From Candidatus Wukongarchaeum yapensis (GTDB taxonomy: Archaea; Asgardarchaeota; Wukongarchaeia; Wukongarchaeales; Wukongarchaeaceae): DNA of 18,531 nucleotides. The first letter of the stretch is position 1, and each line of letters opens with the position of its first letter. The stretch covers positions 1 through 18,531 of the forward strand of contig JAEOSI010000020.1 of assembly GCA_016840425.1 (NCBI GenBank). The letters are read 5' to 3'. Positions 1,696 through 18,531 of the stretch are shown in pieces. The translations under genes were made by a program, and so were the position numbers. The notes under the pieces were generated by a model. That model saw nothing but the letters and a program-made list of their open reading frames with translations, ran no database searches and was not told the origin of the DNA.

Positions 1696-1791
1696 GTTCC
1701 TGCTCCCACTTGGCAACTGATTGCCTGACTAATTGGTTTAATATTATATCTTTTAATAAAGTTTTCATAAGGCTGAAGTTTTGCCCAATAA

Positions 1792-2757
1792 TCATCGTTT
1801 GTGCCTTTCATGGAGTTTTCTCATATAGAATTTTTTCCCTTCGTATTCTGTCTCGATGAGTTGTTCTTGATCGATTAATTTTTGAATAGTGGACCAGTCA
1901 GCCTTTGCCTGCGACAAAAACTTCTTCACAGCTTCTTCTCTCATGGGATGCACCGATGTAATGCTCAACAGATCTTCTTCAACGTTTCCCGTAAAAGCAA
2001 AGGCATTGCCCTCGTAACCTATGAGATATTCTACATTGTCAATTTTTTCACTAAAGTTTTGGTAGGCTCTATTAATAACTTCTTCACTGGGAGGTTGCAC
2101 CCACTTTTCTGCGGGCGGTCTTGTGGCGACGGATAAGTAAGCCTTACTGGGTTTCAACTGTGTCAAAAAGTCGGCAACTTCCTTAATATGTTCCTCACGG
2201 TCATTAGCGCCTTTTAGAAGCATCGTTTCTGTTACTAACTCTCCGTCGTAAACCTTGGAAAACTCTAACATACCGTCCAAAATTGTGTCTAATTCCAAAT
2301 TTTGATGGGGTCTGTTGATCCTGCGCCAGAACCTTTCTCGGGTCGAATCTACTTTCAAAGAGACCCAATCTGCTTTCATAAGGTCTTCTCTAACATCAAC
2401 ACGCCAAATGAGTGAGGCGTTGGTGATCACCGCAGTCTTGATCCCCAAGGGCTTCAAAAGATCGATTTCAAAGCCAAGATTAGCGTCTAGCGTAGGCTCG
2501 CCGTCGGGTACGAAGGTAAGGTAATCGATGGATTCGCCAACTTCTCTTGTTTTTTCTATCTTTTCCTCAACCGCCTTCAAAATTTCCTTTGGTTCATAAA
2601 ATATGAGGCGCTGGACCTGTTTCTTTATTGTACGTCCTAACTGGCAATAGACACAGCCATAACTGCAAATCTTAGGGGGGATATTGTTGATTCCTAAGCT
2701 ACGTCCTAAACGTCTAGATGGGACCGGTCCGAAGGCTATCATGATTTGGAACTCCAT
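1792..2757 (-). CDS. Radical SAM Fe-S oxidoreductase (COG0731-like, TYW1/Taw1-related group)
   Basis: CSYGCVYC (CxxxCxxC), N-terminal FGPVPSRRLGRSLGIN and DGEPTL motifs typical of this family. Alternative start ATG 2742. Confidence 0.88.
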   Translation of the reverse strand: MEFQIMIAFGPVPSRRLGRSLGINNIPPKICSYGCVYCQLGRTIKKQVQRLIFYEPKEILKAVEEKIEKTREVGESIDYLTFVPDGEPTLDANLGFEIDLLKPLGIKTAVITNASLIWRVDVREDLMKADWVSLKVDSTRERFWRRINRPHQNLELDTILDGMLEFSKVYDGELVTETMLLKGANDREEHIKEVADFLTQLKPSKAYLSVATRPPAEKWVQPPSEEVINRAYQNFSEKIDNVEYLIGYEGNAFAFTGNVEEDLLSITSVHPMREEAVKKFLSQAKADWSTIQKLIDQEQLIETEYEGKKFYMRKLHERHKR

Positions 2758-2888
2758 GGTAAGAATTGGTTTCTAAAACATTTTTAATTTATGTCACCAT
2801 CCCCTTATACCCTTTTATTTTATACTGTTATTTTATTGAAGTGGAGATGTTTTAGATTTTTAGAGGTTGTTTGGAGGGTTTTTTGTTT

Positions 2889-3467
2889 TTATTTTTTGTT
2901 TGTTTGGAAGTATTTTTTTGTTTTTATTTTTTCCATCAGTTTTTCGTAGGTGTCCTTTAATCCCTCGACAATAACTCTTGTGCCAGAAAATATGTCGAAG
3001 AAGTTGGCCTCTCTTTTATATCGGGGGACTATTTGGATGTGCAAGTGTTTGATGCTTCCGCCACCAGCGTATCCTTGGTTTATTCCTACGTTGAACCCGT
3101 CGGGATTGTAGGGATCTTTGAGGAGGAGGATGGAGTCTTGAACAAGCTTGTTTAAGTGTAAAAGTAAATCATCGTTTAAATCTTCATAATTTTCGTAGTG
3201 TTTTAAGGGCACAACCATTAGATGTCCGGGATTGAATGGGTATATGTTTAGAACTACCATCGCTTTATTGTCCCTGAAAAGTTCCCAGCTTGGGACTTGG
3301 GGGTTTTTTTTCACTATTTCGCATAGCGTGCAGGCGAATTTTCTTTTTTGGTGGTGTCTTCTTATATATTGAATCTTTTCGGGGCACCATAAATAATCGC
3401 GAAAAACTTTGCCTTCTTCTATCTCTGAATCATTATTTTCGACCAATTGGGTTACTTCTCCTTGCAA
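2889..3467 (-). CDS. HIT-superfamily nucleotide hydrolase/transferase (Ap4A phosphorylase-like), HxHxQ variant
   Basis: CxxC (CTLC), LNIYPFNPGHLMVVP, GFNVGINQG, HLHIQIVPR. Start is a TTG and uncertain. Confidence 0.88.
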   Translation of the reverse strand: MQGEVTQLVENNDSEIEEGKVFRDYLWCPEKIQYIRRHHQKRKFACTLCEIVKKNPQVPSWELFRDNKAMVVLNIYPFNPGHLMVVPLKHYENYEDLNDDLLLHLNKLVQDSILLLKDPYNPDGFNVGINQGYAGGGSIKHLHIQIVPRYKREANFFDIFSGTRVIVEGLKDTYEKLMEKIKTKKYFQTNKK

Positions 3468-3615
3468 GGCTGTTTTATATTGGTTTTTAACTATTTTTAC
3501 TTCTTTTTTTAGTTTTTTATGGTTCTTTTTGAGCGTTTCATGTTACATGGAAAGTATGTGGATAACAGAGGGTTTAATTTTTTCTATTAAGGGAACTTTT
3601 TTGGGTGTTTCTATT

Positions 3616-4251
3616 ATGAATAGTGATTTAGAACTACTTTCGGTTGTCAGGTTTTTTGGCAAAGACGGTTTTTACGCGAGGAAAAAGGAGCAAACAGAAG
3701 CATTATTAGAGTTAGAAAAAGCGAAGTTAGTTAAAATAAAGAAGAGTTCTAAAAAAACTTTCTTGATAACGGATAAAGGTTTAAAATTGCTTCAACAAAA
3801 TTACACCCTTCCACCGCCAAAGATTGAAACAAATGTCGACATGAAAGGGATAGAAGAACTATTTTTACAAGTTAAACATCTTATGGTTAAACTTGAGGAC
3901 ATGCTTGTACAAGTTCAAGGTTTAAGTCAGACGAATAAAGACTATGATGGTTTTAATAATCATGATTTTTTGAATGTAAATAAGGAGAAGGAGGTTTTCT
4001 TTCAAAGCGTTAGAAAAGCTTATAGGCGGAGAATTACTGTCTCAAATCCCTTGGTGAAAATATCGGAGATTTGGGAGGAGGTTCGTAAAGCGCTTCCCAT
4101 ATCTCGAGAGAAGTTTGAAAACTATCTGTTGGAGCTTCATGATAAAGGGAGATTAACGCTTCAGACTGCTATAAGCTCTTTAAAAACGCGGGGAGGAATC
4201 AGGGTCCCTCACGGGGTATATAATTACATTATTTTAGAAGAAGGGGCATAA
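3616..4251 (+). CDS. Hypothetical protein with predicted N- and C-terminal winged-helix-like domains and a central coiled coil
   Basis: The ORF-track start (3409) overlaps the HIT gene and translates low-complexity T-rich DNA. ATG 3616 follows a GGGTG SD-like motif. EALLELEKAKLVKI...FLITDKG and ISREKFENYLLELHDKGRLTL resemble wHTH helix plus wing patterns. Confidence 0.7.
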   Translation: MNSDLELLSVVRFFGKDGFYARKKEQTEALLELEKAKLVKIKKSSKKTFLITDKGLKLLQQNYTLPPPKIETNVDMKGIEELFLQVKHLMVKLEDMLVQVQGLSQTNKDYDGFNNHDFLNVNKEKEVFFQSVRKAYRRRITVSNPLVKISEIWEEVRKALPISREKFENYLLELHDKGRLTLQTAISSLKTRGGIRVPHGVYNYIILEEGA

Positions 4252-4252
4252 A

Positions 4253-5548
4253 ATGGCAAAAGATAAAGTATCTAAAGATGAGATTTTAATACAGGAAAAT
4301 CCTTTTAGGATCTTTGTATCTCGTTCAGACATCCCGGATGAAGTAGACATAATAGAGCCAAGAGTGCATGTAGAAGAAGCGATTGTTGATGTTATTAAAA
4401 CTGTTTCACGGGACAGGATGCCGTATATTTTGCCCGTTTTAGGAGAGGCAGGTTACGGAAAAACTCACCTCTATTGGGCGCTTAAAAAGAGACACAATGA
4501 TCTTAATATTGTTTACATAACACCTCCTTTAAAGGGTTATGACAGGCTTATTCAACACGTCTATTTTTCAACGGTGAAGAACCTTGGCTATGGGATCTTT
4601 GAGAAGATCTCTGAAAATTTGGAAAAAGCTTATGGAGACTTAGATAAAGCAATGTTACATAATCCAGGGTATGCTGCGGATTTGATTCAAGTTTTAAAAA
4701 AGATTGAAAAACCAGAGTTAAGAGATTTGGCGGTAAAATATCTTTGTGGGACGCCTGTTTCTAAGGATGAGTTGGAGGTTTTGTGTGCACGTGAACCAGT
4801 TTTTCGTGAAGACGTCGCACTTCAAGCGTTAAAAATTTTAACTGATAATCTTGAAAAACCTTTAGTGTTATTTTTGGACGAGCTTGAAGCGCCGTACTTG
4901 GAGGGGGGTGAAGAGTCACAGATCAGGTATTTAGAAAACGTAAAAAGAATTTTTAACGAGTGCAAAAATATTGTAATTATTATGGCTTGTCTTACAGATA
5001 TTTGGTCGAAAATAATCTCAATGGCTTCAAGCGCGGCTCAGGGGAGAACAGAGAAACCTAAAATCCTTAGGCGGTTCACTGCAAAAGATATAACCGAATT
5101 TTGTCAAAAAGTATTATCGAACTTTTGGACCAACAAAGGGATTACAAGTCAGAAAAAGGATTCGTTGTATCCTTTATCGGAAAACGATTTCCTTTCTGCT
5201 TACAGGTTTTCCCACGGCAATCCCAGGGAGGCTATACGCTGGATAAAAAACAGAATAGAGGAAAAGAGGTTTAATATACTTAAAAAAGAAAAACCCATAG
5301 AGCCCATTGAAGTCGTTGAAGACGTTATAAAACTGTTAAAAGCCATGGATAACGATCTTGATATAAAGATGATGTTAAAGGGGGAAGAAGTGCAGACAAA
5401 GGTTTCAAAGAACGGTTCTGAAGTCAAATTACGGATAAAAGATAAAAAACTATTTTTAATCAACAAAAATAAGCAGGAAACAGACGTTTCTGAAGAGGAT
5501 ATAGACACCCTAGCCAAAAACATAATCGAAAATCTTTCAAAAAACTGA
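4253..5548 (+). CDS. P-loop (AAA+-like) ATPase of unknown function
   Basis: Walker A GEAGYGKT, Walker B LVLFLDELE, helical lid-like GNPREAI. Starts 1 nt after the upstream stop codon. Confidence 0.88.
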   Translation: MAKDKVSKDEILIQENPFRIFVSRSDIPDEVDIIEPRVHVEEAIVDVIKTVSRDRMPYILPVLGEAGYGKTHLYWALKKRHNDLNIVYITPPLKGYDRLIQHVYFSTVKNLGYGIFEKISENLEKAYGDLDKAMLHNPGYAADLIQVLKKIEKPELRDLAVKYLCGTPVSKDELEVLCAREPVFREDVALQALKILTDNLEKPLVLFLDELEAPYLEGGEESQIRYLENVKRIFNECKNIVIIMACLTDIWSKIISMASSAAQGRTEKPKILRRFTAKDITEFCQKVLSNFWTNKGITSQKKDSLYPLSENDFLSAYRFSHGNPREAIRWIKNRIEEKRFNILKKEKPIEPIEVVEDVIKLLKAMDNDLDIKMMLKGEEVQTKVSKNGSEVKLRIKDKKLFLINKNKQETDVSEEDIDTLAKNIIENLSKN

Positions 5549-6328
5549 TTGAAAAAGCATGCGTATTGCTGCAACGATTAGGATTACTGCAAATAACATA
5601 CGGATACGCTCAACTTTCACGTAACTTAAAGCAAATTTTGAGCCTGAAAAAGCACCAAAAAAAGTTGCTATAGCTAGAGGTAAGGCGAGACCTAGGTTCA
5701 CGCGACCAAATGATCCATAGAGGAGTAAAGAGTACATTGTAGTAATCACTATCATGAAACTGCTGGTACCGACAGAATTACGCATAGAAACCCCCAAAAC
5801 AAGGTGCAGTATAGGGACTTTTATGACACCGCCACCAATCCCTAAAGAAGCTGAGAAAAACCCGGCTAAAAACGAGAATAATAGAGCTAAAAGCAAGACG
5901 TTCTTAGAAAGATTTTTAAAGGAAAAGGGAAAAAAACCGTTTTCCACGTCATTATAAGCCCTTTTAGAGCCTGTAAAAATTTTTATCGATGAAAGGAATA
6001 AGACCAAGGAGAATAGGAACACTAGTATAGTTTGCCCAGCGTGTAGATGAAAATAAAAGCCAAAAGTTGCCCCAATTAAGGTGACGGGCTCTAAAAATAA
6101 CCCTAATTTTAAAATTACCTTTCCGCTTTTAAGATAATTTATTGTAGCGCCTATACTTGTAGGAAGAATCATGGCCAAACTGAGGGGGACCGCCTCCTTC
6201 ATACTAAAACCAAAAATTAGGACCAAGATAGGCACGTAAAAGACTCCGCCGCCTATGCCCACCATGCTTGCTAAAAAACTAGCAAAAAAAACAAACAAAG
6301 CCAACAAAACAAAGGTTAAAAGATCCAT
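5537..6328 (-). CDS. Sulfite exporter TauE/SafE family membrane protein
   Basis: Twice-repeated G(I/L)GGG...VP motif (MVGIGGGVFYVP; LGIGGGVIKVP) and about 8 hydrophobic segments. Confidence 0.9.
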   Translation of the reverse strand: MDLLTFVLLALFVFFASFLASMVGIGGGVFYVPILVLIFGFSMKEAVPLSLAMILPTSIGATINYLKSGKVILKLGLFLEPVTLIGATFGFYFHLHAGQTILVFLFSLVLFLSSIKIFTGSKRAYNDVENGFFPFSFKNLSKNVLLLALLFSFLAGFFSASLGIGGGVIKVPILHLVLGVSMRNSVGTSSFMIVITTMYSLLLYGSFGRVNLGLALPLAIATFFGAFSGSKFALSYVKVERIRMLFAVILIVAAIRMLFQSVF

Positions 6329-6389
6329 GGAAAAACACCAAAAAAAACATTAGAGAATTTTTATAAATTCAAACATAGAAATGTAGCAC

Positions 6390-6566
6390 CTAAAAAAAAG
6401 CAAGGAAAAAATAAACTAAAAAAAGCGCTGCCAAAATTAGAAAAGCGAAGAAGCCGCAGATGCAGATGTTAACAGTTTTTTCAGAGGGAGGTTTTTGCTC
6501 TTTTTCTTCAATGTCCCCATAATATTTTAATGCTTCTTTTATCATCTCATCAGGATGTTTATCCAA
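6390..6566 (-). CDS. Small (58 aa) predicted tail-anchored membrane protein, below the ORF-track cutoff
   Basis: Manual translation: TTG 6566 with GGAGG 10 nt upstream gives MDKHPDEMIKEALKYYGDIEEKEQKPPSEKTVNICICGFFAFLILAALFLVYFFLAFF, stop TAG 6392-6390. Confidence 0.55.
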   Translation of the reverse strand: MDKHPDEMIKEALKYYGDIEEKEQKPPSEKTVNICICGFFAFLILAALFLVYFFLAFF

Positions 6567-6750
6567 TATTAGTTTTCCTCCTAAATCTTGACCAATTAAA
6601 ACCTCAGTTTTTTCATAAAATTTTCCCCCCTAGAAAACTTAAAAAAATGCGATAATATATAAAAAAATAAAAAATAAGGTCGTTCAAAACTAGAAAATTA
6701 AAAAAAAGAGAGAAAATTAATAATAGGAAATTTTTAACAGGGCGATTTTT

Positions 6751-7203
6751 TTACCAATTTATAAGCTTTAAGACGTCTTTTAAGTCTTTCTCAACGATTT
6801 CGGGTTTTTGCGGGGCTTTTGGCTTTTCCATTAGTATTTTGTTGACTTTCTCAAGGACTTTGGATAATTTAAGCCTTATGAGGCCGATATTTCCATTTTT
6901 ATCCATAGCCACTGAAATAATATGGTTTTTAAAACAGGGGTTAATAAGGATAAAACCTTTTGAAAACTCTAAGGTTAAAAGGTCCATTCTCTTCATTTCT
7001 GCCCTCTCACCTTGTTCCATATTACCTGAGAAAATCGCGTGAGATATAGGACCCATAACTAATTCTTTAGGATCATCTTTTCCTAGTCCTGCACTAAATA
7101 ATAAAAGCCCAACATCATCTACCAAAACCACCGAGATAATGTGCTTGTCTGAGCTATACAATTCCTCCAACACAGAACTAATTTCTACTAGTTTTTCCTG
7201 CAA
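6751..7203 (-). CDS. Roadblock/LC7 (MglB/LAMTOR-like) domain protein with a charged C-terminal tail
   Basis: Pattern IISVVLVDDVGLLLFS ... LTLEFSKGFILI ... IISVAMDKNGNIGLIRLKL fits the Roadblock alpha/beta fold. TTG start. Confidence 0.75.
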   Translation of the reverse strand: MQEKLVEISSVLEELYSSDKHIISVVLVDDVGLLLFSAGLGKDDPKELVMGPISHAIFSGNMEQGERAEMKRMDLLTLEFSKGFILINPCFKNHIISVAMDKNGNIGLIRLKLSKVLEKVNKILMEKPKAPQKPEIVEKDLKDVLKLINW

Positions 7204-7371
7204 AAATAAAGACCTACCTAATCAACACTACTTATACTTAAATAACTTCTAAAAAAAATAAATATCTTCTAGAAAAAATATCCGAATTTCTAAAAGAAAA
7301 ATCCGCAAATTAAAGTTTAAAAAACAATTTTCTCATAATTAACAGATGCAATCACTTTTCTTTTCATTTCT

Positions 7372-9294
7372 TTAGCCTTGTTCTAGAACCGCCTTTATCT
7401 CTTCTCTTAAGATTCGGCTAACTGTTTTCCCATCAATTTTCCCACGTAACTCTTTCATAATCTCCCCCATCAGAGGACCGATAGATTTCTCTCCTCTTTC
7501 TTTAATTATATTGAGATTTCTCTCCAGTATCCCTTTTATGAAAATTCTAACTTTTTCAACGGACACCGTTTCAAGTTTCAACTTTTCAACGGCTATATTA
7601 GCGGTGTCTCCAGGATTGCTAGCAAGATGTGTTAAAAGGTCGTCAACAACTTCTTTTGCTACACGATTTTCAGCTAAAAGTTCAAAAACCTGCCAAAGAT
7701 GATCCCTTGTTATCCTATCAACAGGAACACCATCCCGACCCAAAGCCTTCATCTTCTGAAGAACAGTGGTAGCTACAAGCATCGGATCAATACCAAGTTC
7801 ATTAACAATATTTTCAAATAAAATAGCATAATCATGAACCGCTAATTCATAAGCTAAAGTTTCAGGTAATTTAAGCCCTTTTACGTATCTTTCCTCACGA
7901 ATCCACGGATAATCAGACAACTCTGCCCTAATTTTTTCTACCAGCTCTTCAGGAATAGATATCGGAGGCGTATCCGTATCAGGATACATCCTAGCACCAC
8001 CACCAAGAGGTCTCTCAAACTCCGTATTACCTTCAAGCAACGCCCTCCTAGTTTCTGGGGGCACACCGCCTAAAGCCTCTCTAGCGCGGATTATACACTC
8101 TTCAAGAGCCATTCTAGCCCGTTCAAGCTCAGAAACAACCACAATAACACAATCATCATCACGAGCCCCAAAAACGGATAACAACGCCTGTTTTTCATCC
8201 TCGGATATGCTGTATGCTGGAAGCTCATCCGTATGAATTATGCCACCAACACCAGCAATTACCCGAGCTCTATCTGAGACCTCCTTCCCAAACCTCCTCC
8301 CCGGCTGAACTTCCTTCCCAAGCAAACCGGCAAATTTTGAAAGTTTAACGCCTAAAACTACGGCGCCCTTACCCACAGCCTTCCTTATAAATTTAGCCTT
8401 AGTTTCTGAGAAAATATCAGTAACATCTTTAAAATCAACAGTCAATTCCTCTACTTTCAACCCTCTTTGCTCCAACTCATCCCGAATCTCGAGAAGAGCC
8501 AACTGTCTCAACACTTCATTCCTAACAAGAGGCGCAATCCACTCAAGCCTCTGCACCCCTTTAACCTCTACGCGCCTTCCCCCCTCAATACTCACATTAA
8601 TATCCTGACGTATCGTGCCCAAACCCTTTCTAACACGCCCCGTAGCTCGAAGTAACCTGCTTATCCTATGAGCAGCCTCCACAGCCTCCTCAGGAGACGA
8701 TATATCCGGATAAGTACCAATCTCCACGAGAGGAATACCGATACGATCAGTCCTCCAAACAATCTCCTCCTCACTCTCATCAATCTCCCTACAAGCATCC
8801 TCCTCCAAAGAAAGCAAAGAAACCCTAATCTTTTTACCACTCCTCAAAGGCAAAAAACCCCCAGTCCCCACAATCATCGTCCTCTGAAAACCCGTAGGCA
8901 CACTACCATCAAGATACTGCTTCCGCGAAATATGCCACTCATCAAGCACCTCCACATTAAACAAAAGAGCAATCTCTATAACTATATTCACAGCCTCTTC
9001 ATCCACCTCAAAAGGAGGAATCTCATCAATCTCATAAAGACAAGTAGTATCATCATAAATCTCATAAACTATCCTCTTACCCTTCTTAAACTCCATAAGA
9101 GCAGTCGGATCAAACTCCCCCATCTCACTCAAAGTCGGCCGCATAAAACGAACCACGCGCGAATCAGGATCCTCCTTCCTCAACTCCGCAGGACAACGAC
9201 AAAAAAGCTTTCCCCGCGTAAACAACTGCTGATGAATCTCCAAACCCACCTTAAGACCAACACTTCCATAATCCAACCTATCACTTTCAACCAT
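7372..9294 (-). CDS. gatE: Glutamyl-tRNA(Gln) amidotransferase subunit E
   Basis: GLKVGLEIHQQL..KLFC.CP, DGS..GFQRT, LEEDA, GLGTIRQDINVSI, ARMYPDTD, and a C-terminal YqeY-like GPLMGEIMK. ATG 9294 is preferred over TTG 9330. Confidence 0.97.
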   Translation of the reverse strand: MVESDRLDYGSVGLKVGLEIHQQLFTRGKLFCRCPAELRKEDPDSRVVRFMRPTLSEMGEFDPTALMEFKKGKRIVYEIYDDTTCLYEIDEIPPFEVDEEAVNIVIEIALLFNVEVLDEWHISRKQYLDGSVPTGFQRTMIVGTGGFLPLRSGKKIRVSLLSLEEDACREIDESEEEIVWRTDRIGIPLVEIGTYPDISSPEEAVEAAHRISRLLRATGRVRKGLGTIRQDINVSIEGGRRVEVKGVQRLEWIAPLVRNEVLRQLALLEIRDELEQRGLKVEELTVDFKDVTDIFSETKAKFIRKAVGKGAVVLGVKLSKFAGLLGKEVQPGRRFGKEVSDRARVIAGVGGIIHTDELPAYSISEDEKQALLSVFGARDDDCVIVVVSELERARMALEECIIRAREALGGVPPETRRALLEGNTEFERPLGGGARMYPDTDTPPISIPEELVEKIRAELSDYPWIREERYVKGLKLPETLAYELAVHDYAILFENIVNELGIDPMLVATTVLQKMKALGRDGVPVDRITRDHLWQVFELLAENRVAKEVVDDLLTHLASNPGDTANIAVEKLKLETVSVEKVRIFIKGILERNLNIIKERGEKSIGPLMGEIMKELRGKIDGKTVSRILREEIKAVLEQG

Positions 9295-9523
9295 TTCAGA
9301 AACCAAAAAACCCACTCCGTAAAAACCCAAAAAACCTTAGCTTAACTAAAAATGATAAACAAAAAACTAGCTTTTAACATTAGCGCAACATACAACAACA
9401 AAAAAACTAAAATCCTTACCGAGGAATGCTTGAGGAACTTTAATGCTGCACTATATATTAAATAAAACATCTGAAAACCAGAAAAACATGAAAAACATGA
9501 AAAAACCGTTAAAGTTGCTTTTC

Positions 9524-9970
9524 TTACCTGCGTATCATGCGTATGCCCGTATTAACATGGTTAAGCTGCCTTTCAGTATAAGGTTTTAAAAGCTTAAAAC
9601 CGAAATTTGAATACCATTCTATAAGACCTTTCCTCCGCTCTAAAAACTCCCTTCTTAACAACTCTTTACCACCTTTTTCAAAAGGTTTTACAACAAGGGT
9701 CGCTATCGCATTTCTCTCATCTAAAAAGTCTAGAAACTTATTCATCAAGGTCTTTCCATATCCCTTGTTCCTAAAATCAGGATCAACATAAATCTTGAAA
9801 AGTTTATACAATCCAAGAGTGAATTCGTCCACTTCCAACCGTGCAACAATTTTCCTCCTTTTACCTGCCGGAACCGTACTAATAGTAAAAAAATAAGAGT
9901 CACGCCTTTTTACAACACGCAAAATATCATTCAAAGATTTTCTTCCTTTGAATAATGTTTCCTTCCCCAT
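9524..9970 (-). CDS. GNAT-family N-acetyltransferase
   Basis: Acetyl-CoA motif A YVDPDFRNKGYGKTLM and motif B LIEWYSNFGF. ATG 9970 has GAGG upstream; the ORF track extends to 10009. Confidence 0.82.
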   Translation of the reverse strand: MGKETLFKGRKSLNDILRVVKRRDSYFFTISTVPAGKRRKIVARLEVDEFTLGLYKLFKIYVDPDFRNKGYGKTLMNKFLDFLDERNAIATLVVKPFEKGGKELLRREFLERRKGLIEWYSNFGFKLLKPYTERQLNHVNTGIRMIRR

Positions 9971-10262
9971 GCAAAACCTCTTTTTCACCCCAAGATCGGA
10001 CGTAAGCAATCACCTTAAAATTATCACACCTACAACCCTAAAACAAAATATATACATCCCATCTCAAATAACTTTCTACTCCTTAAGTATATTACAATTA
10101 AACCCTATATATGGACATATTAATAGTTTAGAACCCTTCAACTCCTACCTTATAAAAATATCTCAAGACTATATTTAAAAAAACAACCAAAACCAAATTT
10201 GACATAAAAACAAAAAAAAACAAAGCGAACCCGAAAACAGGCTCAACAAGAGGTTTTCACTC

Positions 10263-10733
10263 TTGCTAAATTTAGAAAAAGAAAAAGTTTACCCCATAGG
10301 ATACGTAGCAAAAGTTTGGGACGAAGAAAAAGCCAAGATAAAGATTAAAAAAGAGTTTGCAGAAGGTTTTGAAAGAATTGAGGAGTTTTCCCACTTAATA
10401 ATCCTTTACTGGTTTCATCTTCGCGATAATTCGGAGCATAGAACTGTTTTAAAAGTCCATCCAAAAAGACATCCCGACGCCCCCATCGTAGGCGTTTTTT
10501 CTTCCCGCAGCCCGAGTAGACCGAACCCCATAGGACTATGTATAGTAAAAATTTTGGAAATAGGGAGAAACTATGAGTATATAGATGTCGAGGGATTAGA
10601 TGCTCTGGAGGACAGCCCAATAATCGATATAAAACCCTATATTCCCCTCAGAGACACAATACCTAAAGCCACTATCCCCCATTGGCTTAAAAAACAAACA
10701 GACAACAATCGAAATCCTGAGAAATATCTTTGA
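10263..10733 (+). CDS. trmO: tRNA (N6-threonylcarbamoyladenosine(37)-N6)-methyltransferase TrmO/TsaA (YaeB/AF0241 family)
   Basis: PIGYV, FSHLIILYWFH, GVFSSRSPSRPNPIGL, LDALEDSPIIDIKPY. Confidence 0.92.
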   Translation: MLNLEKEKVYPIGYVAKVWDEEKAKIKIKKEFAEGFERIEEFSHLIILYWFHLRDNSEHRTVLKVHPKRHPDAPIVGVFSSRSPSRPNPIGLCIVKILEIGRNYEYIDVEGLDALEDSPIIDIKPYIPLRDTIPKATIPHWLKKQTDNNRNPEKYL

Positions 10734-10816
10734 TAAAAAACTTTTAAAGCAAAAAAAAGTTCGAAAACAAAAAAAAACGTGAGAAAATCTAAGAGATTTT
10801 AATGGTGGCTTAAAAC

Positions 10817-12247
10817 ATGGATAAAAAAGAAGAAGATTCTTTACAAGGTTACAGAGGAGAAGCTCAAAAAACGCTACAAAAGTACGGCGTAAAAGTATGG
10901 TCCGAAGTAAAAATAACAGGAAAAAAACGAATTTTTGAAGGAATAGTGCTCCCAAGAAGCGAACTAGGAGACGACAAACACATCGTGATAAAACTACCAA
11001 ACGGATACGACATAGGAATAAACATCAAAGACATAGAAACAATAGAAGAAAAAGGATACGAACCCGCCGCCTACAAACTCCCAGAAAAAACCTTTCCAAA
11101 AGACGAGAAAAAACCCAACGTAACCCTCCTAGGCACCGGAGGAACCGTAGCAGCCCGCCTCGACTACCGCACAGGCGCCGTAATACCCGCCTTCACCCCC
11201 CAAGAACTCTTCACAGCAGTACCAGAACTAACAGACATCTGCAACCTAGAAACAAGAACAATCTACGAAATATTCTCAGAAAACATGAAACCAGAACACT
11301 GGCAAAAAATCGCCGAAGAAACAGCCAAAGAAATAAACAAAGGAACAGAAGGAGTCATAATCGCCCACGGAACAGACACAATGCACTACACAGCATCAGC
11401 CCTCACATTCATGCTAAAAAACCTACCCGTACCCGTCGTAATGGTCGGAAGCCAAAGAAGCAGCGACCGCCCCTCAAGCGACGCAGCAACAAACCTCATA
11501 AGCGCCACCCTAACCGCCGCAAAAAGCGACATAGCCGAAGTAACAATCTGCATGCACGAAACAACAAACGACCCCACCTGCCTCATACACAGAGGAACAA
11601 GAGCAAGAAAAATGCACTCAAGCAGAAGAGACACCTTCCGCACCATAGACGACACACCCCTCGCAAAAGTAAACCCCCTCACAAAACAAATCACACCCCT
11701 AAGAAAAGACTACAACAAAAGAAAAAAAACCAACAAGAAGAAGAAAGAGGAGAAGAAGAAGGAAGAGAAGAAAAAAGAAGAAAGAGGAGAAGAAGAAGGA
11801 AGAGAAGTAATAGCAGACACAGCCTTCGAAGAAAAAACAGCCCTAATATACACATACCCAGGCATAAAAAAAGAGATAATAGAACACCTAATAGACCAAA
11901 ACTACAAAGGAATAGTCATAGCAGGAACAGGACTCGGACACACACCAGAAACACTCATCCCCACCCTAGAAAGAGCAATACAACAACAAAACATGACAAT
12001 AGTAATGACCACACAATGCCTCTGGGGCCACATAAAAATGAACGTATACGACACAGGCAGAAAACTCCTAAAAATAGGCGTAATACCCGGAGCCAACATG
12101 CTCCCAGAAACCGCCTACATAAAACTAGGACACATACTAGGACACACACAAAACAAAGAAGAAATAAAAAAACTCATACAAACAAACATAGCAGGAGAAA
12201 TCACAAAAAGAGAAAAACACAAAGCCTACCAAATACTCCAAAACTAA
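10817..12247 (+). CDS. gatD: Glutamyl-tRNA(Gln) amidotransferase subunit D (asparaginase-like)
   Basis: N-terminal KLPNGYDIG domain, GTGGTVAARLDYRTGAV, HGTDTM, SQRSSDRPSSDA, MLPETAYIKL. Confidence 0.97.
   Translation: MDKKEEDSLQGYRGEAQKTLQKYGVKVWSEVKITGKKRIFEGIVLPRSELGDDKHIVIKLPNGYDIGINIKDIETIEEKGYEPAAYKLPEKTFPKDEKKPNVTLLGTGGTVAARLDYRTGAVIPAFTPQELFTAVPELTDICNLETRTIYEIFSENMKPEHWQKIAEETAKEINKGTEGVIIAHGTDTMHYTASALTFMLKNLPVPVVMVGSQRSSDRPSSDAATNLISATLTAAKSDIAEVTICMHETTNDPTCLIHRGTRARKMHSSRRDTFRTIDDTPLAKVNPLTKQITPLRKDYNKRKKTNKKKKEEKKKEEKKKEERGEEEGREVIADTAFEEKTALIYTYPGIKKEIIEHLIDQNYKGIVIAGTGLGHTPETLIPTLERAIQQQNMTIVMTTQCLWGHIKMNVYDTGRKLLKIGVIPGANMLPETAYIKLGHILGHTQNKEEIKKLIQTNIAGEITKREKHKAYQILQN
11738..11807 (+). 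repeat. Tandem duplication inside gatD: two identical 33-nt copies (11738-11770, 11775-11807), period 37 nt
   Basis: aagaagaaagaggagaagaagaaggaagagaag twice, read in different frames (KKKEEKKKEEK versus EERGEEEGRE). Confidence 0.9.
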
Positions 12248-12353
12248 GAAAACCGAAAAACACCAGCTCTTCTTAGATATACATTAGATGATTATTTTCA
12301 GGCAAATTTTTACCATCGCTTGAGAACTCAACCCTAAAAAAACTACCCCCAAC

Positions 12354-12768
12354 CAAAAACACGCAAAAAAACAACAACCACTAACCAAAAAAATGTAAAC
12401 TTTAAAACAAAAACACGCAAAAAATACACACAAAAAAATAAACCAAAAGGTTAAAAGCCTTAAACAAACCAAATATAAATGCAAATAAACAAAAAAAACA
12501 CAAAAGATCAACTCCCCACCAAACCAGAAGATATAAAAACACCCAACACACAACAAAGTTTTGCTACAAAAATAATAGTAACTCCCTAGATGCAGACCAA
12601 TGAACCGAAAAACCCACTCTTTTGGGTGTAAGGCTCCCTTGGTCGAAGAATAGATGCAAACCAAGAGAATGAAAAAAAGACCTATTCTTTTGGTTGAAGG
12701 ATCAAAGGGAGAGCGGGAGATATCAAAAAAAAACACACAAAGATACCCTCCCAAAAACACGCAAAAAA
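12354..12768. repeat. Three dispersed identical 17-mers CAAAAACACGCAAAAAA (12354, 12408, 12752)
   Basis: Read directly from the sequence. The background is A/C low-complexity, so information content is modest. Confidence 0.65.
12524..12538 (+). promoter_or_regulatory. Candidate BRE/TATA for the 16S transcript
   Basis: CCAGAAG followed by ATATAAAA, upstream of the processing-stem 5' arm. Another candidate lies at ~12473. Position is plausible but unproven. Confidence 0.3.
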
Positions 12769-12809
12769 AACAATAACTCACTCCCAAACTCCCTTAATGA
12801 AGATCACGC

Positions 12810-12892
12810 AAAGGCCCAAAAACAAATAACAATCCCAGCAGAAAACAGAAAAACCCGCTAAAACAAAAACCCCCCCGGAAAAACAAAACAAA
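12810..12892 (+). other. 5' arm of the pre-16S rRNA processing stem, including one BHB strand
   Basis: AATCCCA(12831-37)/TGGGATT(14628-34); central helix GCAG(12838-41)/CTGC(14621-24); 3-nt bulges AAA(12842-44) and TCA(14625-27); ACAGAAAA(12845-52)/TTTTCTGT(14613-20); further pairs CCCCGGAAA/TTTCCGGGG and CAAAACAAA/TTTGTTTTG. Confidence 0.85.
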
Positions 12893-13038
12893 AAAGCGCT
12901 GGGTGTCAGAACCAGACAAAACCCAAAAAAAAACGGTAAAAATGAATGAAAGGTTCAATCCAACAGCGCAAGCAAAAACTCCCCCAAAAACAAAAAAAAC
13001 AAACAAATAGCGGTCAAAAACTTCCCGTCAACTAAACA

Positions 13039-14575
<1,537 letters not shown>

Positions 14576-14580
14576 GATCG

Positions 14581-14645
14581 TTTGTTTTGGGATTTCCGGG
14601 GTGGAGAAGGGCTTTTCTGTCTGCTCATGGGATTTTTGGGCCTTT
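14581..14645 (+). other. 3' arm of the pre-16S rRNA processing stem, including the second BHB strand
   Basis: Complementary to 12810-12892 as listed for the 5' arm. Confidence 0.85.
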
Positions 14646-14651
14646 TTACCT
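14598..14651 (+). repeat. Direct repeat, copy 1 (16S trailer)
   Basis: 31-nt core AGGGCTTTTCTGTCTGCTCATGGGATTTTTG (14608-38) plus GGCCTTTTTACCT (14639-51), both identical to copy 2. Confidence 0.93.
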
Positions 14652-14739
14652 ACCTCTTCTTTTATCTTGAACAGTCTATTTAATTGGGAGTGATTTTTAG
14701 GAGTGCATAAAAAAAGATACAAAGAAAATTTAGCCTTCT

Positions 14740-15504
14740 TTATTGATCATTTCTTCTTTTTTTAATAATATAGAATTCAAATTTTACCATTTTTTCGTAA
14801 AAACAATTCCATAATTCAATGATCATTTGTGCAAATTCTCTGTACTGTTTAGCAGTAAAGTAAAAACCTTTTTCGTCTGTTTTTTCATCTGTTCGTCTAT
14901 GGGGGAAAGAAGAATCCATCTGGCTCACTGTAAAGTTAAGATTACTAGTTATAGTATCAATTAATCTAACTTCCTTAGACGATAATATTTTCTTTTCTTT
15001 AGGTCTAATTATATCCAATTCTTGGACAAATTGTTTTAATTTTGAGAGAAATTGGTTAAACTTTTTTTCATCCCATAGTTTTATCTGTTTTTCAACTTCC
15101 TTTTCCCTATTTACGATATATTCTCTAAATGTAGTAATTATCGCTATATCACCTTTTTGAAAATCATTCTCAACAAAAGTTTCATCCAATATCTTATAAT
15201 AATCATTTATTAAATCTAGATCTCCTAGAGTATCTCTCATATAATTAATAATCAATTTACGAACTTTTCCATAAAATACTGAGTTCCTTTCAAAATCTTC
15301 CTTTTCCTTTTCAAATTCTTCCTTCTTTTTTTCCTCTAACCCATGATACCAATATAAATAGCTAACACTAATCGCTATAATGAGAGTAAATAATATTTCC
15401 GAAAGAAGGTCTTTGAAAAAAAGATAGCTTATAATCACAGTTAGCAAGAGGAATATTGCAATTTTAAGAATAAGGCTTTCTTTAAAACGGTTAACAATTT
15501 TCAC
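14740..15504 (-). CDS. Hypothetical protein with two N-terminal transmembrane helices and a charged helical region
   Basis: Hydrophobic stretches LILKIAIFLLLTVIISYLFF and ILFTLIIAISVSYLYWY. GTG start with GGGGAG upstream. Confidence 0.75.
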   Translation of the reverse strand: MKIVNRFKESLILKIAIFLLLTVIISYLFFKDLLSEILFTLIIAISVSYLYWYHGLEEKKKEEFEKEKEDFERNSVFYGKVRKLIINYMRDTLGDLDLINDYYKILDETFVENDFQKGDIAIITTFREYIVNREKEVEKQIKLWDEKKFNQFLSKLKQFVQELDIIRPKEKKILSSKEVRLIDTITSNLNFTVSQMDSSFPHRRTDEKTDEKGFYFTAKQYREFAQMIIELWNCFYEKMVKFEFYIIKKRRNDQ

Positions 15505-15613
15505 CTTTACTGCTCCCCTTAAAGTTTAATTTTGAAGTACTCTACTTTCTTCAACAAATTTCATGTAAATAGAGCTTGCTTATCTCCACAAAAAAGAAAT
15601 TATCTTTAAGTTA

Positions 15614-16543
15614 TCACGAGATTATCTCATCATAATAGACTTGTAACTTGACCAAGTCTTTTTTGCTTACTTCCCTAGAGTGGGCAATAGCATTCCTTAT
15701 AGGTTCTAGTTCACTTAGTTTAACGGAAATTACTTTCTCGTCTTTGAATTTCTCTTTAAACACTTGTTCCCAATTTTCTTTATCAGTTATTATTTTTACG
15801 TAATCTGTAAAATCAACGTAGTGAATGGGATGGAGGTCTTCGCCTTTGTGCCATGGATATTGTTTCTCATCTTTTTCTTTTCGTTGTTCTGCTTTTTTAC
15901 GAATTTTTGATGGTATTCTTTCTTCCCACCAATTTTCAGAAACCATTTTGAGTTTAGTTTTGATATATTCTCTCAGCTTTGTTTCTAGTTTTTTCAATAT
16001 CTTGTAGGGTTCTTCCATCCGTTTCTTTCTTTCTTGTTCAAGGATCTGAGGGATCTCTTTGTTATAGATAAGGGGATGATTTTTGATCGTTCGAAGGATT
16101 GAAATGGCATGTTTTATCCTAGTTTCGGGTTTTACATAACTATAAACCCGATCAATTTTATTCATTATCAGGTAACTGTTACCTTCAGCAGTTAGATTCT
16201 TCCTCTTTATAGAAACAGATCCAAGATAGTTTTTGATCCTTTCAAGCCATCCCTCACATTTGAATAGAAAGGATCGATCTGTATCTTTCTGTTGCTTTTT
16301 TCGTTGAGCATCAAGATGTTTTTTAGTATATTTTCGTGCCCGTTTTCTTGTTCCAGGTATCCCTAATACTTGGTCTGCAATTTCACCAGCTATTTCGATT
16401 TTAATATCGTCAACTATTTCTTGCCCTACTCTCTTTGTTTCCTTCCCTAAACTTTCGACTTCTCTTGCTAAACTCTCTCCTTCACGAATGAATTGCTCGA
16501 TTTGGCTTTTTATATCCTCCGAAATCTTTATTCCCCAGCTAAT
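15614..16543 (-). CDS. Swt1-like HEPN domain protein (putative RNase) with an N-terminal extension lacking a canonical start
   Basis: C-terminal Y..L..LE..LR.YI...WW...IP...YVDF.DY..II...NW..F...IRNAIAHSR with the HEPN RxxxxH motif. The frame stays open 126 codons upstream of the ORF-track ATG 16165, up to TAA 16546-16544. Confidence 0.72.
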   Translation of the reverse strand: MSWGIKISEDIKSQIEQFIREGESLAREVESLGKETKRVGQEIVDDIKIEIAGEIADQVLGIPGTRKRARKYTKKHLDAQRKKQQKDTDRSFLFKCEGWLERIKNYLGSVSIKRKNLTAEGNSYLIMNKIDRVYSYVKPETRIKHAISILRTIKNHPLIYNKEIPQILEQERKKRMEEPYKILKKLETKLREYIKTKLKMVSENWWEERIPSKIRKKAEQRKEKDEKQYPWHKGEDLHPIHYVDFTDYVKIITDKENWEQVFKEKFKDEKVISVKLSELEPIRNAIAHSREVSKKDLVKLQVYYDEIIS

Positions 16544-16597
16544 TTACTTTAAAGTGTCTTTAAGGTTTGTCATCAAGAATAGTTTAATATTTTTAAA

Positions 16598-16605
16598 TTT
16601 ATAAA
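16598..16605. promoter_or_regulatory. Palindromic TTTATAAA, candidate shared TATA box for the divergent HEPN and nuclease genes
   Basis: Lies in the AT-rich gap between the divergent ORFs, about 27 nt from ATG 16573 on the minus strand and about 35 nt before GTG 16640. Confidence 0.35.
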
Positions 16606-16639
16606 TCATTAAACATTTTTTTAAACGGGAAGATGTGGG

Positions 16640-17548
16640 GTGATTGGATTGGAGAAGAAGAGGTTTGAAAAGTTGGATTTGATTTTGAGTGATTTTTTTG
16701 AGGCTCTTTTTGAGATGAAGACAGAATTCGAAGAAGGGGAGTTGGATCCTGTGAAAGCTTTGGAAACTTATGAGAGGTATGCTTTGGGTCATAAGGCGGA
16801 GCGTGATTTTTTTCGGGGAGTGAATTCGATCGATACGACTTATGTTAGGGTTTCTGCGATTAAGATGTATCATAGAAGGTGGAAGGAGGGTGAGAGGGTT
16901 CTTGATGCTCAGCTTATTTTGCAGAAGGGTAATGATAAGAGGATTTTTGGTGTTGAGTTGAAGTCGAAGTTGTTTGTTGTTCCTGAATTCAAGGGTTCTT
17001 TTTGTAACTTGAAGTGTTTGGTTTCTTTTCCTAAGTATCAGATTGAAGGAGAGAAAAGATTTTGTGAGAATAATGGTTTTGAAGGTTTATTGCTTGGAAT
17101 TGATTTGAGAAAAAACGTTTTTGCGAGAGGAGTTAGACAGTTTTTTAATAGGGTTTTAAGTCGAGAAGAAAAGGATTATGAAAAAGTTCTAGAGAGCGTT
17201 AATATCATAATAAGGAGCAATAAGGCTGAGAATGTTAATTATATAACAGATGTAATTCCTTACATGGTTGATCAGGACTTTGACTATTTGATTTCGGGGA
17301 TTGAGGAGTCTTGGAAATTGAAACATAGGCCTGATTCTTATGAAGGATTTTATTTATTCGGGTTGAGTGATGATATCGTGAAAGAAGCTAAACATGGAAG
17401 ATCTTACTATATTCACCTAGGGGATAGGGAAACTGTTAGTAATTCGCTTTTTATTTTCTTTCCAAAGACTTTGATGGAAGAAAAAGGAGAAAAGAGACAC
17501 ATGGCTTACTTTAATATGGACAAGATATTCAAAAGGTTGCAAGATTGA
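16640..17548 (+). CDS. Putative PD-(D/E)xK (restriction endonuclease-like) nuclease
   Basis: Spacing of helix E (GHKAERDF), strand D (VLDAQL) and ExK (GVELKSK) fits the fold. No specific family is recognised. Confidence 0.6.
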   Translation: MIGLEKKRFEKLDLILSDFFEALFEMKTEFEEGELDPVKALETYERYALGHKAERDFFRGVNSIDTTYVRVSAIKMYHRRWKEGERVLDAQLILQKGNDKRIFGVELKSKLFVVPEFKGSFCNLKCLVSFPKYQIEGEKRFCENNGFEGLLLGIDLRKNVFARGVRQFFNRVLSREEKDYEKVLESVNIIIRSNKAENVNYITDVIPYMVDQDFDYLISGIEESWKLKHRPDSYEGFYLFGLSDDIVKEAKHGRSYYIHLGDRETVSNSLFIFFPKTLMEEKGEKRHMAYFNMDKIFKRLQD

Positions 17549-17592
17549 TGATAAAATGTGACAACCACACTTTTTAAACTTCATAAAAAATA

Positions 17593-17651
17593 GGGGCGGA
17601 GGAGGGCTTTTCTGTCTGCTCATGGGATTTTTGTTTTGGGCCTTTTTACCT
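17593..17651 (+). repeat. Direct repeat, copy 2
   Basis: Same 31-nt core (17603-33), 5 extra nt TTTTG, same 13-nt tail (17639-51). The 10 nt upstream match at 8/10. Confidence 0.93.
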
Positions 17652-17696
17652 TCACTTTTTTTATCGTTTTATCCTGATTTTTAGAGTTTATTTTTT

Positions 17697-18437
17697 CTAT
17701 CCTAAAGGTATTTCTTCTTTGAAGTAGGGGAATTTCTCGAGGATTTTTCGGGGATTTGCTCTTAGTTCAGGCCAGTATTCTGCAAAATAATCTTTAAACC
17801 AATCCCAAGCGTCTTGGAGTTCGTCTTTATAAGAACCAAAAACATCTTCTTTCCATATTCTGTCTTGGTTATTGAACCAGTTCAGAAAGTCGGGGGTTTT
17901 CATAATGTAGGTTTTGATTGGGCGTAAATTCTCTTCCTTCCAAGTGATGCCTTTTGAATCCTTTCGTATTAAGTTAATACCACTCACACGCACCATAGCG
18001 AAAAGAGAGTTTTTCACTGTGTAAAGTGATTCGTAGTAACCTCTCCATGAAACTACCATGCCTATTCCATTTTCCAACAGCCAGTCTTTTATTTCTATAA
18101 ATACCCTCTGCATGTTATCGAATAAGAAGCTATAAGCGCGTTGGTTTTCGCCCCTCTTCTTTTCTTTTAAAGGTAGAGGATTTGCAAAAACCGCCATATC
18201 TTCCCATTTGTAGTCTACATCATTGAATATTTCTTCGTTTACTTTTTTTAGGACTTTATCATTCTCTTCTTTTGACCAGAAGATTACAACATCAAAAACG
18301 CTTTCTGGGTCAGGCTCTTCACAGAACTCACCAAAGAATAGAGTATCTAACAAAGCAAACCTCCATCCCCACTGTCGAGGAGCATCCATCTTTATCTTGT
18401 CGATATGGTTGAGAATCCTCTTTTCAAATTCGTTCAT
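17697..18437 (-). CDS. Hypothetical protein (246 aa, Trp/acid-rich)
   Basis: Long ORF with ATG start and protein-like composition; no motif recognised. Confidence 0.7.
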   Translation of the reverse strand: MNEFEKRILNHIDKIKMDAPRQWGWRFALLDTLFFGEFCEEPDPESVFDVVIFWSKEENDKVLKKVNEEIFNDVDYKWEDMAVFANPLPLKEKKRGENQRAYSFLFDNMQRVFIEIKDWLLENGIGMVVSWRGYYESLYTVKNSLFAMVRVSGINLIRKDSKGITWKEENLRPIKTYIMKTPDFLNWFNNQDRIWKEDVFGSYKDELQDAWDWFKDYFAEYWPELRANPRKILEKFPYFKEEIPLG

Positions 18438-18443
18438 TTCAAA

Positions 18444-18530
18444 TCAAACCAGCTCTATTTCTATTGTAAAATTCTGAGTTAAGTTAAAATTTGGTATCCA
18501 TGTTCTTTTGTTCGTATTCCTACTTTTTTT
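18444..18530 (-). CDS. Possible 3' end of an upstream gene cut by the window edge
   Basis: Frame open from the edge to TGA 18446-18444, 7 nt before the next ATG. Too short to be sure. Confidence 0.3.
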   Translation of the reverse strand, partial: KKSRNTNKRTWIPNFNLTQNFTIEIELV

Positions 18531-18531
18531 A

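Follow-up and report, generated by a model that had tools for sequence, protein, structure and literature searches.

Why should one strand of the processing stem of a 16S rRNA occur twice behind a single 16S gene, with about 3 kb between the two copies? The question is raised by the window studied here, an 18,531-nucleotide (nt) stretch of Candidatus Wukongarchaeum yapensis (GenBank assembly GCA_016840425.1, contig JAEOSI010000020.1), which is the entire contig C165 of a metagenome bin of 2.16 Mb in 277 contigs (genome G000 below). An initial annotation, made from the sequence alone, had proposed that the duplicated arm brackets a gene cassette that was integrated into the rRNA trailer. Trailer-targeted integration is supported by the existence of a cassette-free allele, by a repeat with only two copies in the genome, and by junctions that are bridged in independent contigs; none of the observations that would speak against it (both copies in every relative, a genome-wide repeat, two loci misjoined at the repeat) was made. 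Overall, the locus is probably best explained by an insertion of foreign or accessory DNA into the 16S trailer, a recurrent site of gene capture among Asgard archaea.

Archaeal pre-rRNA folds its leader and trailer into a stem with a motif of the bulge-helix-bulge (BHB) type, which the splicing endonuclease EndA cleaves, and the pre-16S becomes circular. Such a stem can be read in the window, where the 16S gene lies downstream of GatD and other housekeeping genes (the coordinates of all features are collected in Table 1); the 23S gene of the genome is on a different contig, C123. When the leader (12810-12893) was cofolded with the trailer (14581-14646), a long helix of -71 kcal/mol was obtained, and a search for a strict 3-4-3 BHB motif returned a single candidate, with a GCAG/CTGC helix and the bulges AAA and TCA. 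Its leader side reads ATCCCA/GCAG/[AAA]/ACAGAAAA at 12832-12852, and its trailer side reads TTTTCTGT/CTGC/[TCA]/TGGGAT at 14613-14633.

It is the trailer strand of this stem that is repeated. An identical 31-mer occurs at 14608-14638 and 17603-17633, at a spacing of 2995 nt, and is followed in both copies by GGGCCTTTTTACCT, which is preceded by a further 5-nt TTTTG in copy 2 only. The location and spacing first annotated are thus borne out, and the similarity is longer than first noted, with 64 of 76 aligned columns identical (84%) over about 70 nt, i.e., 14598-14665 against 17593-17665. Since the repeat spans 14598-14665 and the trailer side of the BHB lies at 14613-14633, the repeat holds the entire 3′ half of the BHB together with the outer stem; the cofold and the strict motif agree that it is the 3′ strand of the pre-16S BHB stem. 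Among 200 shuffles of the window, none contained any match at three or fewer mismatches. In the whole 2.16-Mb genome there are two copies of the repeat and no third, which rules out a genome-wide terminator or a repeat of the miniature inverted-repeat transposable element type, and a scan of IMG/VR for the arm core returned no match, so no free element bearing the arm was found there. Minus-strand genes end behind both copies, as annotated, with stops at 14740 (75 nt past copy 1) and 17697 (32 nt past copy 2). Duplication of the arm and the adjoining gene as one unit is ruled out, because the two proteins, of 254 and 246 amino acids (aa), are unrelated. As for the suggestion that copy 2 retains the ancestral outer arm, the pairing with the outer leader is indeed more stable for copy 2 than for copy 1 (-48.8 vs. 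-43.0 kcal/mol), but the ancestral reading of this difference is ambiguous.

A repeat of this kind could also be created during assembly, if sequences from two loci or from two strains had been fused at the 31-mer that they share, with the two copies on separate molecules. Two strains co-occur in the metagenome bin from which the window derives, a second public assembly breaks within copy 1, and unitigs at k=31 break at the repeat. However, contig L042 of that second assembly (k=141) is 100% identical to window 14621-18528 and spans the cassette, copy 2, and the gene for the 246-aa protein. Furthermore, Logan unitigs from four runs of four studies cover the cassette (14611-16517, 16488-17631, and 17604-17849), bridging copy 1 to the cassette, the cassette to copy 2, and copy 2 to the right flank, and the form specific to copy 1, without TTTTG, runs into the cassette in these unitigs. 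Both junctions between cassette and repeat, as well as that between copy 2 and the right flank, are thus bridged by independent contigs. The same architecture is also present in the closed genomes G025, G046, and G037. We regard an assembly artifact as very improbable.

An allele without the cassette, to be compared with the empty site that the initial annotation had asked for, was found in the second assembly. Its contig L043 is 99.78% identical to the window over 13.85 kb (window 818-14664), including GatD, an identical leader, and the 16S gene. After the inner trailer, L043 carries a single arm that is joined directly to TTTTATCCTGATTTTT(G)AGAGTTTA; this is segment X, which in the window follows copy 2 and not copy 1. 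The same order of arm and segment X is seen in the genus-mate G001. Logan unitig depth is ∼20 upstream of the 16S gene and ∼9-10 over the cassette and the 246-aa gene, a pattern that fits two strains in a ratio of about 1:1, with a common 16S gene and different sequences behind it. Over the 322 nt that precede the repeat the two strains are identical (100%), and the drop to 89% coincides exactly with the start of the repeat, so that what separates the strains is an exchange beginning there.

Under the proposed explanation, 2.9 kb of foreign or accessory DNA (14666-17592), which holds three genes and begins 91 nt past the end of the 16S gene, would have entered the 3′ trailer of this gene, the sole one for 16S rRNA in the genome, with duplication of about 70 nt of trailer sequence. 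Copy 1 would leave the 16S gene with a complete 3′ processing arm, including the BHB half that the splicing endonuclease needs, and copy 2 would be the displaced copy, still attached to segment X as the original downstream flank. New DNA would enter beside the 16S gene and push older trailer copies outward, and arrays of defense-type and accessory genes would be built up in this manner.

The copies could instead be the relic of an rRNA gene, copy 2 being what is left of another 16S gene or of the 3′ arm belonging to a 23S gene formerly located behind the 16S. The 3-kb spacing is close to the length of a 23S gene, and the last trailer copy of G037 is indeed followed by a 23S gene. However, it is the 16S arm that copy 2 matches and the 16S leader with which it pairs, the window contains no large-subunit (LSU) or extra small-subunit fragments and no pieces of leader or 16S body downstream, and the interval holds intact protein genes, one of them with homologs elsewhere. 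The 23S flanks of the window genome share nothing with copy 2: the end and trailer of this 23S gene have no similarity to the 16S arms and are not repeated in the 8.9 kb downstream. A relic 23S arm, the weaker alternative in the initial annotation, was rejected on the missing LSU fragments and the dissimilar 23S flanks, and a relic of either rRNA gene is highly unlikely.

Copy 2 might also be kept for a function as RNA, either by terminating the 302-aa and 246-aa genes, which are convergent, or as a second BHB partner, in cis on read-through transcripts or in trans. It retains the full BHB half and the pairing with the leader, and lies 45 nt past the 302-aa gene on the same strand, with T5 runs. 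Nevertheless, the two T5 runs of copy 1 would make a 3-kb read-through, antisense to two genes, unlikely, and distal copies decay in relatives (92% and then 84% identity in G032), which fits scars and not maintained elements. A functional duplicate is thus improbable.

The arrangement recurs in other Asgard genomes. The 16S end piece from -60 to +260 (positions relative to the 16S end) of 20 Asgard genomes was searched against the following 5-20 kb, and, in a second survey, additional occurrences of the 17 nt that end the 16S gene were searched for across the phylum. At least nine other genomes (G025, G046, G004, G032, G037, G110, G149, G026, and G036) repeat their own 16S end or trailer 2-38 kb downstream, around accessory DNA, in repeats of 45-261 nt with 84-98% identity; together with the window genome there are ten genomes from seven families. 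The piece from -19 to +114 is repeated at +6630 in G025 (95.5%). In G004, copies of -59 to +199 and of -11 to +141 lie at +14456 and +16208 (both 97%), and in G032 copies of -5 to +113 and of +8 to +119 lie at +2032 (92%) and +4380 (84%). Single copies of 135 nt and 97 nt were found in G110 (+3256) and G149 (+4687), respectively, two copies in G046 (+38005 and +40769), and three in G037 (+26900, +28171, and +29623), and the search with the 16S end also detected downstream trailer copies in G026 and G036. As a control, random 320-nt pieces of the same loci were repeated in 4 of 270 cases, as compared to 5 of 18 trailers.

Only 3′-terminal and trailer pieces are repeated in these islands; pieces of the leader and of the 16S body do not recur, and the second copies are not 16S genes. 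Wherever leaders were compared, the repeats cover the entire stem strand. Those of G025 include a BHB candidate, and the strict BHB search gave no candidate in G032, G036, and G004, where the motifs may be relaxed. The islands of relatives carry, as cargo, a SIR2-STAND-TPR protein, a HEPN protein, peptidases, and NosD-like beta-helix proteins. Divergence is higher for distal than for proximal copies in G032, as given above, in G037 (98 then 92%), and in G046 (97 then 96%), and is equal for both in G004; the mostly higher divergence of distal copies therefore fits serial entry next to the 16S gene. Of the serial insertion proposed in the initial annotation, the window itself displays one cassette only before the contig ends, while relatives supply the array, with two to three extra trailer copies.

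Several observations were made on individual genomes. In the closed 3.58-Mb genome G037 (L053, L071), ∼30 kb lie between the 16S and 23S genes, including a gene for a protein of 7241 aa, and the inserted DNA is bounded by the three 16S-trailer copies, the last of which is ∼600 nt before the 23S (L071 10603-13688). An insertion into the trailer seems to have split an rRNA operon in this genome. Scans of metagenomes and genomes with sequence patterns gave mostly unrelated bacterial matches, and only L039 and G001 were relevant. A trailer copy lacking a 16S gene is present in G001 (contig C3) behind a truncated radical-SAM open reading frame (ORF), and another is present in the metagenome contig L039 with 45 nt of degenerate 16S end; both look like displaced distal copies in incomplete contexts. 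In the radical-SAM ORF (L017 4557-5039), an in-frame TGA stands in place of an expected cysteine (CGL*PEH), and the ORF is cut exactly at the start of the trailer copy. G001 has no assembled 16S gene, and its GatD contig ends at the leader. In G013, which is outside the nine genomes counted, 29 nt of the 16S end recur at a distance of 951 nt downstream.

How could DNA be captured at this site? The initial annotation had suggested looking for a tyrosine recombinase at further repeat copies; neither the cassette nor any of the islands searched yielded a recombinase. Pfam and RNA searches of the cassette interval detected no integrase, transposase, or RNA gene, and no Pfam integrase is among its three genes. 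Tyrosine recombinases (PF00589) are missing from the 16S islands of G000, G004, G025, G037, and G046, and from the entire genomes of G025 and G004; three PF00589 genes are present in the window genome, all of them on other contigs. Pfam scans of island ORFs in G025, G032, G004, G046, G037, G110, and G149 did not detect an integrase either. Furthermore, the boundaries of the repeats vary within single arrays, their left ends ranging between approximately -145 and +34 (counted from the 16S end), and repeats reach lengths of more than 260 nt. Because of the islands without integrase, the variable repeat boundaries, the repeats longer than 260 nt, and the sharp drop in identity at the repeat start, we favor recombination anchored on the conserved 16S end and arm, which would need no integrase encoded by the element; we hold this mechanism with slightly less than even confidence. 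The DNA could have entered through a single crossover of a circle bearing a trailer copy, or by homologous anchoring on one side combined with illegitimate joining on the other.

Two enzymatic routes compete with homology anchoring. In the first, a site-specific recombinase, of the tyrosine or another type, would use the trailer arm as its attachment site and the repeats would be attL and attR, the enzyme having been lost, acting in trans from elsewhere, or belonging to an unrecognized family. Such integration characteristically leaves direct repeats by which the targeted RNA gene stays functional, a 70-nt repeat is within the range of att sites, and the genome does have PF00589 genes on its other contigs; the tRNA-site elements discussed below point in the same direction. 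What speaks against this route is the cassette without an integrase, the islands without PF00589 in the genomes listed above (including the negative Pfam scans of G032, G110, and G149), the boundaries that vary within arrays, and the long repeats. We consider it less likely than homology anchoring, but it is the main alternative and a serious one. In the second route, the trailer copies would act as attC-type sites for an integron integrase. Relatives do contain short gene modules separated by similar repeats, and integrons have reportedly been described in archaea, in a 2022 bioRxiv preprint. However, there is no IntI-type (PF00589) gene near any array searched or in the complete array-bearing genome G025, the repeat is one strand of a leader-trailer helix and not a self-folding palindrome, and the modules reach 38 kb. 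An integron-like array is extremely improbable.

Several points weigh against insertion into the trailer by homology anchoring. The arm of L043 is a divergent allele that shares 89% identity with copy 1 and 82% with copy 2, and the contig ends 62 nt beyond it; L043 is a case of presence and absence between alleles and not a clean before-and-after comparison in an isogenic background. The join between copy 1 and the 16S gene rests on the window contig, as the second assembly breaks inside copy 1. No repeat-repeat joint or circle junction was observed in Logan contigs, which drop rare forms, so that this result counts neither way. The genomes in which the arrangement recurs are related and are thus non-independent samples. 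The genome-wide searches were for PF00589 and LAGLIDADG genes only, and other recombinase types could be missed. Finally, Wu et al. (2022; PMC8813620) report elements of the aloposon type, relatives of HeimV2, at several tRNA sites, which suggests that a site-specific enzyme is active and speaks against homology anchoring alone.

Table 1. Features of the window around the duplicated trailer arm (window positions)
Feature	Position	Strand	Description
Leader (5′) strand of pre-16S stem	12810..12893	+	BHB half at 12832-12852; identical in the cassette-free strain
16S rRNA gene	13039..14575	+	Rfam RF01959, 1390 bits, full length; sole 16S gene of the genome
Inner trailer	14576..14597	+	22 nt; pairs with leader 12870-12893; not duplicated
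Direct repeat 1 (copy 1)	14598..14665	+	Outer 3′ stem arm adjoining the 16S gene; BHB half 14613-14633; two T5 runs
Cassette gene 1	14740..15504	-	ORF; 254-aa orphan with hydrophobic N-terminus (membrane orphan)
Cassette gene 2	15614..16525	-	Swt1-like HEPN (HEPN_Swt1); ∼304 codons; RNAIAH motif
Cassette gene 3	16640..17548	+	302-aa orphan; motif D89 ... E105-x-K107
Direct repeat 2 (copy 2)	17593..17665	+	Displaced outer 3′ arm; BHB half 17608-17628; extra TTTTG
Segment X	17666..17694	+	Trailer flank common to the cassette-free strain and genus-mate G001; marks the original continuation of the trailer
Flanking gene outside the cassette	17697..18437	-	246 aa; sole homolog in the genus-mate, where it is named HEAT-repeat protein

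The cassette is not clearly set apart by its base composition. Its gene 1 belongs to no Pfam, PADLOC, or PHROG family and has no telling Atlas match. Gene 2 matches Pfam PF18731 (6e-11, 43 bits, cut-off 27.5) and PADLOC PDC-M34B (4e-27), and the R-x4-H motif of the HEPN family can be read in its translation. Its length in Table 1 was assigned because homologs of ∼307 aa align with 15614-16525 from end to end; one homolog, with 67% identity, adjoins a type I restriction-modification system. At the start of this gene (16523-16543, minus strand), ATT occupies the position of the ATG of the homologs, with GGGG located 8 nt before it and an in-frame TAA 18 nt before it, so that the gene either would start at ATT or may have lost its start codon recently. 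Gene 3 has no homolog in a 5.8-billion word search or in a 1.8-billion exhaustive HMMER search, no Pfam match, and, by BLASTP, no similarity to the PD-(D/E)xK nuclease of HeimV2. Its structural neighbors in the Atlas are Hjc, RecU, PDDEXK_14, and a restriction endonuclease (TM 0.3-0.5), and its single-sequence AlphaFold model (pLDDT 35) is too poor to use. Based on the D...ExK motif and the Atlas neighbors, gene 3 may encode a PD-(D/E)xK nuclease.

Further variation was observed on both sides of the cassette. To the right, segment X is continued at its end (17694), in a contig of run X2, by 36 letters of other sequence and then by a ∼91%-identical copy of 18265-18531; the contig hints at a diverged allele of the 246-aa gene region, with a one-side match of only 21 nt (window 17694-18265, 18300-18486). 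To the left, GatD and the ∼790-nt 16S leader (window 10817-13038) are extremely A/C-rich on the plus strand (A 45.6% and T 11.5% in GatD, A 49.8% and T 14.4% in the leader), which is not the case for other genes of the window. The leader contains four copies of AACACGCAAAAAA-like words, and a 56-nt piece of it (window 12707-12762) is replaced by 23 other letters in unitigs of three runs, pointing to a strain polymorphism. Elsewhere in the genome, contig G000:C43 starts with the 3′ end of a gene (L032 1-180) that looks actin-type by its sequence.

Mobile elements at the same location have been published. As stated in the passages of Wu et al. (2022; PMC8813620) on HeimM2 and HeimV2 of Ca. Heimdallarchaeum, these elements lie exactly between the sole 16S gene and tRNA-Arg(TCT), and their insertion is credited to a co-opted homing endonuclease or to the tRNA site; a word search of the paper returned no mention of direct repeats or att sites. 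The content of G025 matches the HeimM2 site (Ca. Heimdallarchaeum aukensis), with a leucine-rich repeat (LRR) protein and a LAGLIDADG protein, followed by tRNA(TCT) 8.1 kb after the 16S gene. That of G046 matches the HeimV2 site (Ca. H. endolithica), with ParA, a PD-(D/E)xK nuclease, two giant genes, and IbrA, followed by tRNA(TCT) 44 kb after the 16S gene. In both genomes the published elements are bounded by copies of the 16S end or trailer, and HeimV2 is subdivided by internal copies. In G046 (L072-L074), the 44 kb of HeimV2 are split at +38005 and +40769 into a unit with ParA, the nuclease, and the giant genes, an IbrA-like unit, and a third unit before tRNA(TCT). A LAGLIDADG endonuclease as the common engine is ruled out, as only one of the ten genomes (G025) has such a gene in its 16S island; the other LAGLIDADG matches are outside islands, mostly within very long ORFs.

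As a broader and more tentative proposal, the 3′ strand of the pre-16S stem might be a general, integrase-independent gene-capture site of Asgard archaea, in which the conserved 16S end would serve as a universal recombination anchor. Repeated entry there would build arrays of defense and accessory genes, the site would host giant-gene aloposons, and insertion could part the 16S and 23S genes. Displaced copies with a retained BHB half might, in addition, pair in trans with the leader. If so, the ends of rRNA genes would join tRNA genes as anchors of horizontal gene gain in the archaeal group closest to eukaryotes. The published elements HeimM2 and HeimV2 would be provided with a concrete recombination site, and the ∼30 kb inserted between the 16S and 23S genes of G037 would illustrate a route for the unlinking of rRNA operons. 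The sequence just behind the 16S gene would also mark strain-variable defense genes in metagenomes, at a position where assemblers often break.

The locus can be compared with several known systems. With the archaeal pre-rRNA stem it shares the leader-trailer helix, the canonical 3-4-3 BHB, and copy 1 as the normal 3′ strand; it differs in the second 3′-strand copy 3 kb away, which is a duplication at the DNA level and whose role as RNA is only hypothetical. With the Swt1-like HEPN genes of defense islands (PADLOC candidate PDC-M34B), gene 2 shares the family match and a homolog beside a type I restriction-modification system, whereas its partners in the window are orphans and its start position is ATT. 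Like HeimM2 and HeimV2, the cassette is inserted directly behind a single 16S gene and bounded by trailer copies; unlike them, it contains no LRR protein, giant genes, ParA, or LAGLIDADG gene, the latter of which falls outside the repeat-bounded unit in G025.

Integrative elements are known from the 3′ ends of tRNA and transfer-messenger RNA (tmRNA) genes, both as archaeal elements of the pNOB8/SSV type and as bacterial genomic islands, including tandem arrays. There, too, direct repeats arise by duplication of the 3′ portion of a region encoding a structured RNA, and the proximal copy keeps the gene functional. Arrays grow as the site is used again, so that the older copies are the more distant ones, and the cargo consists of defense and accessory genes. 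The target in the window is different in being a processing-stem strand behind the 16S gene, with no integrase found in the cassette or the islands searched, and with boundaries that vary from copy to copy. Homology-facilitated illegitimate recombination, reportedly described by de Vries and Wackernagel in 2002, and Campbell-type integration by a single crossover are, to our knowledge, not shown in archaea at rRNA genes. Such a model fits the variable distal junctions, the missing dedicated enzyme, and the drop in identity at the repeat start, and its likeness to the present locus lies in the single conserved anchor, here the 16S end, through which diverged DNA would be admitted.

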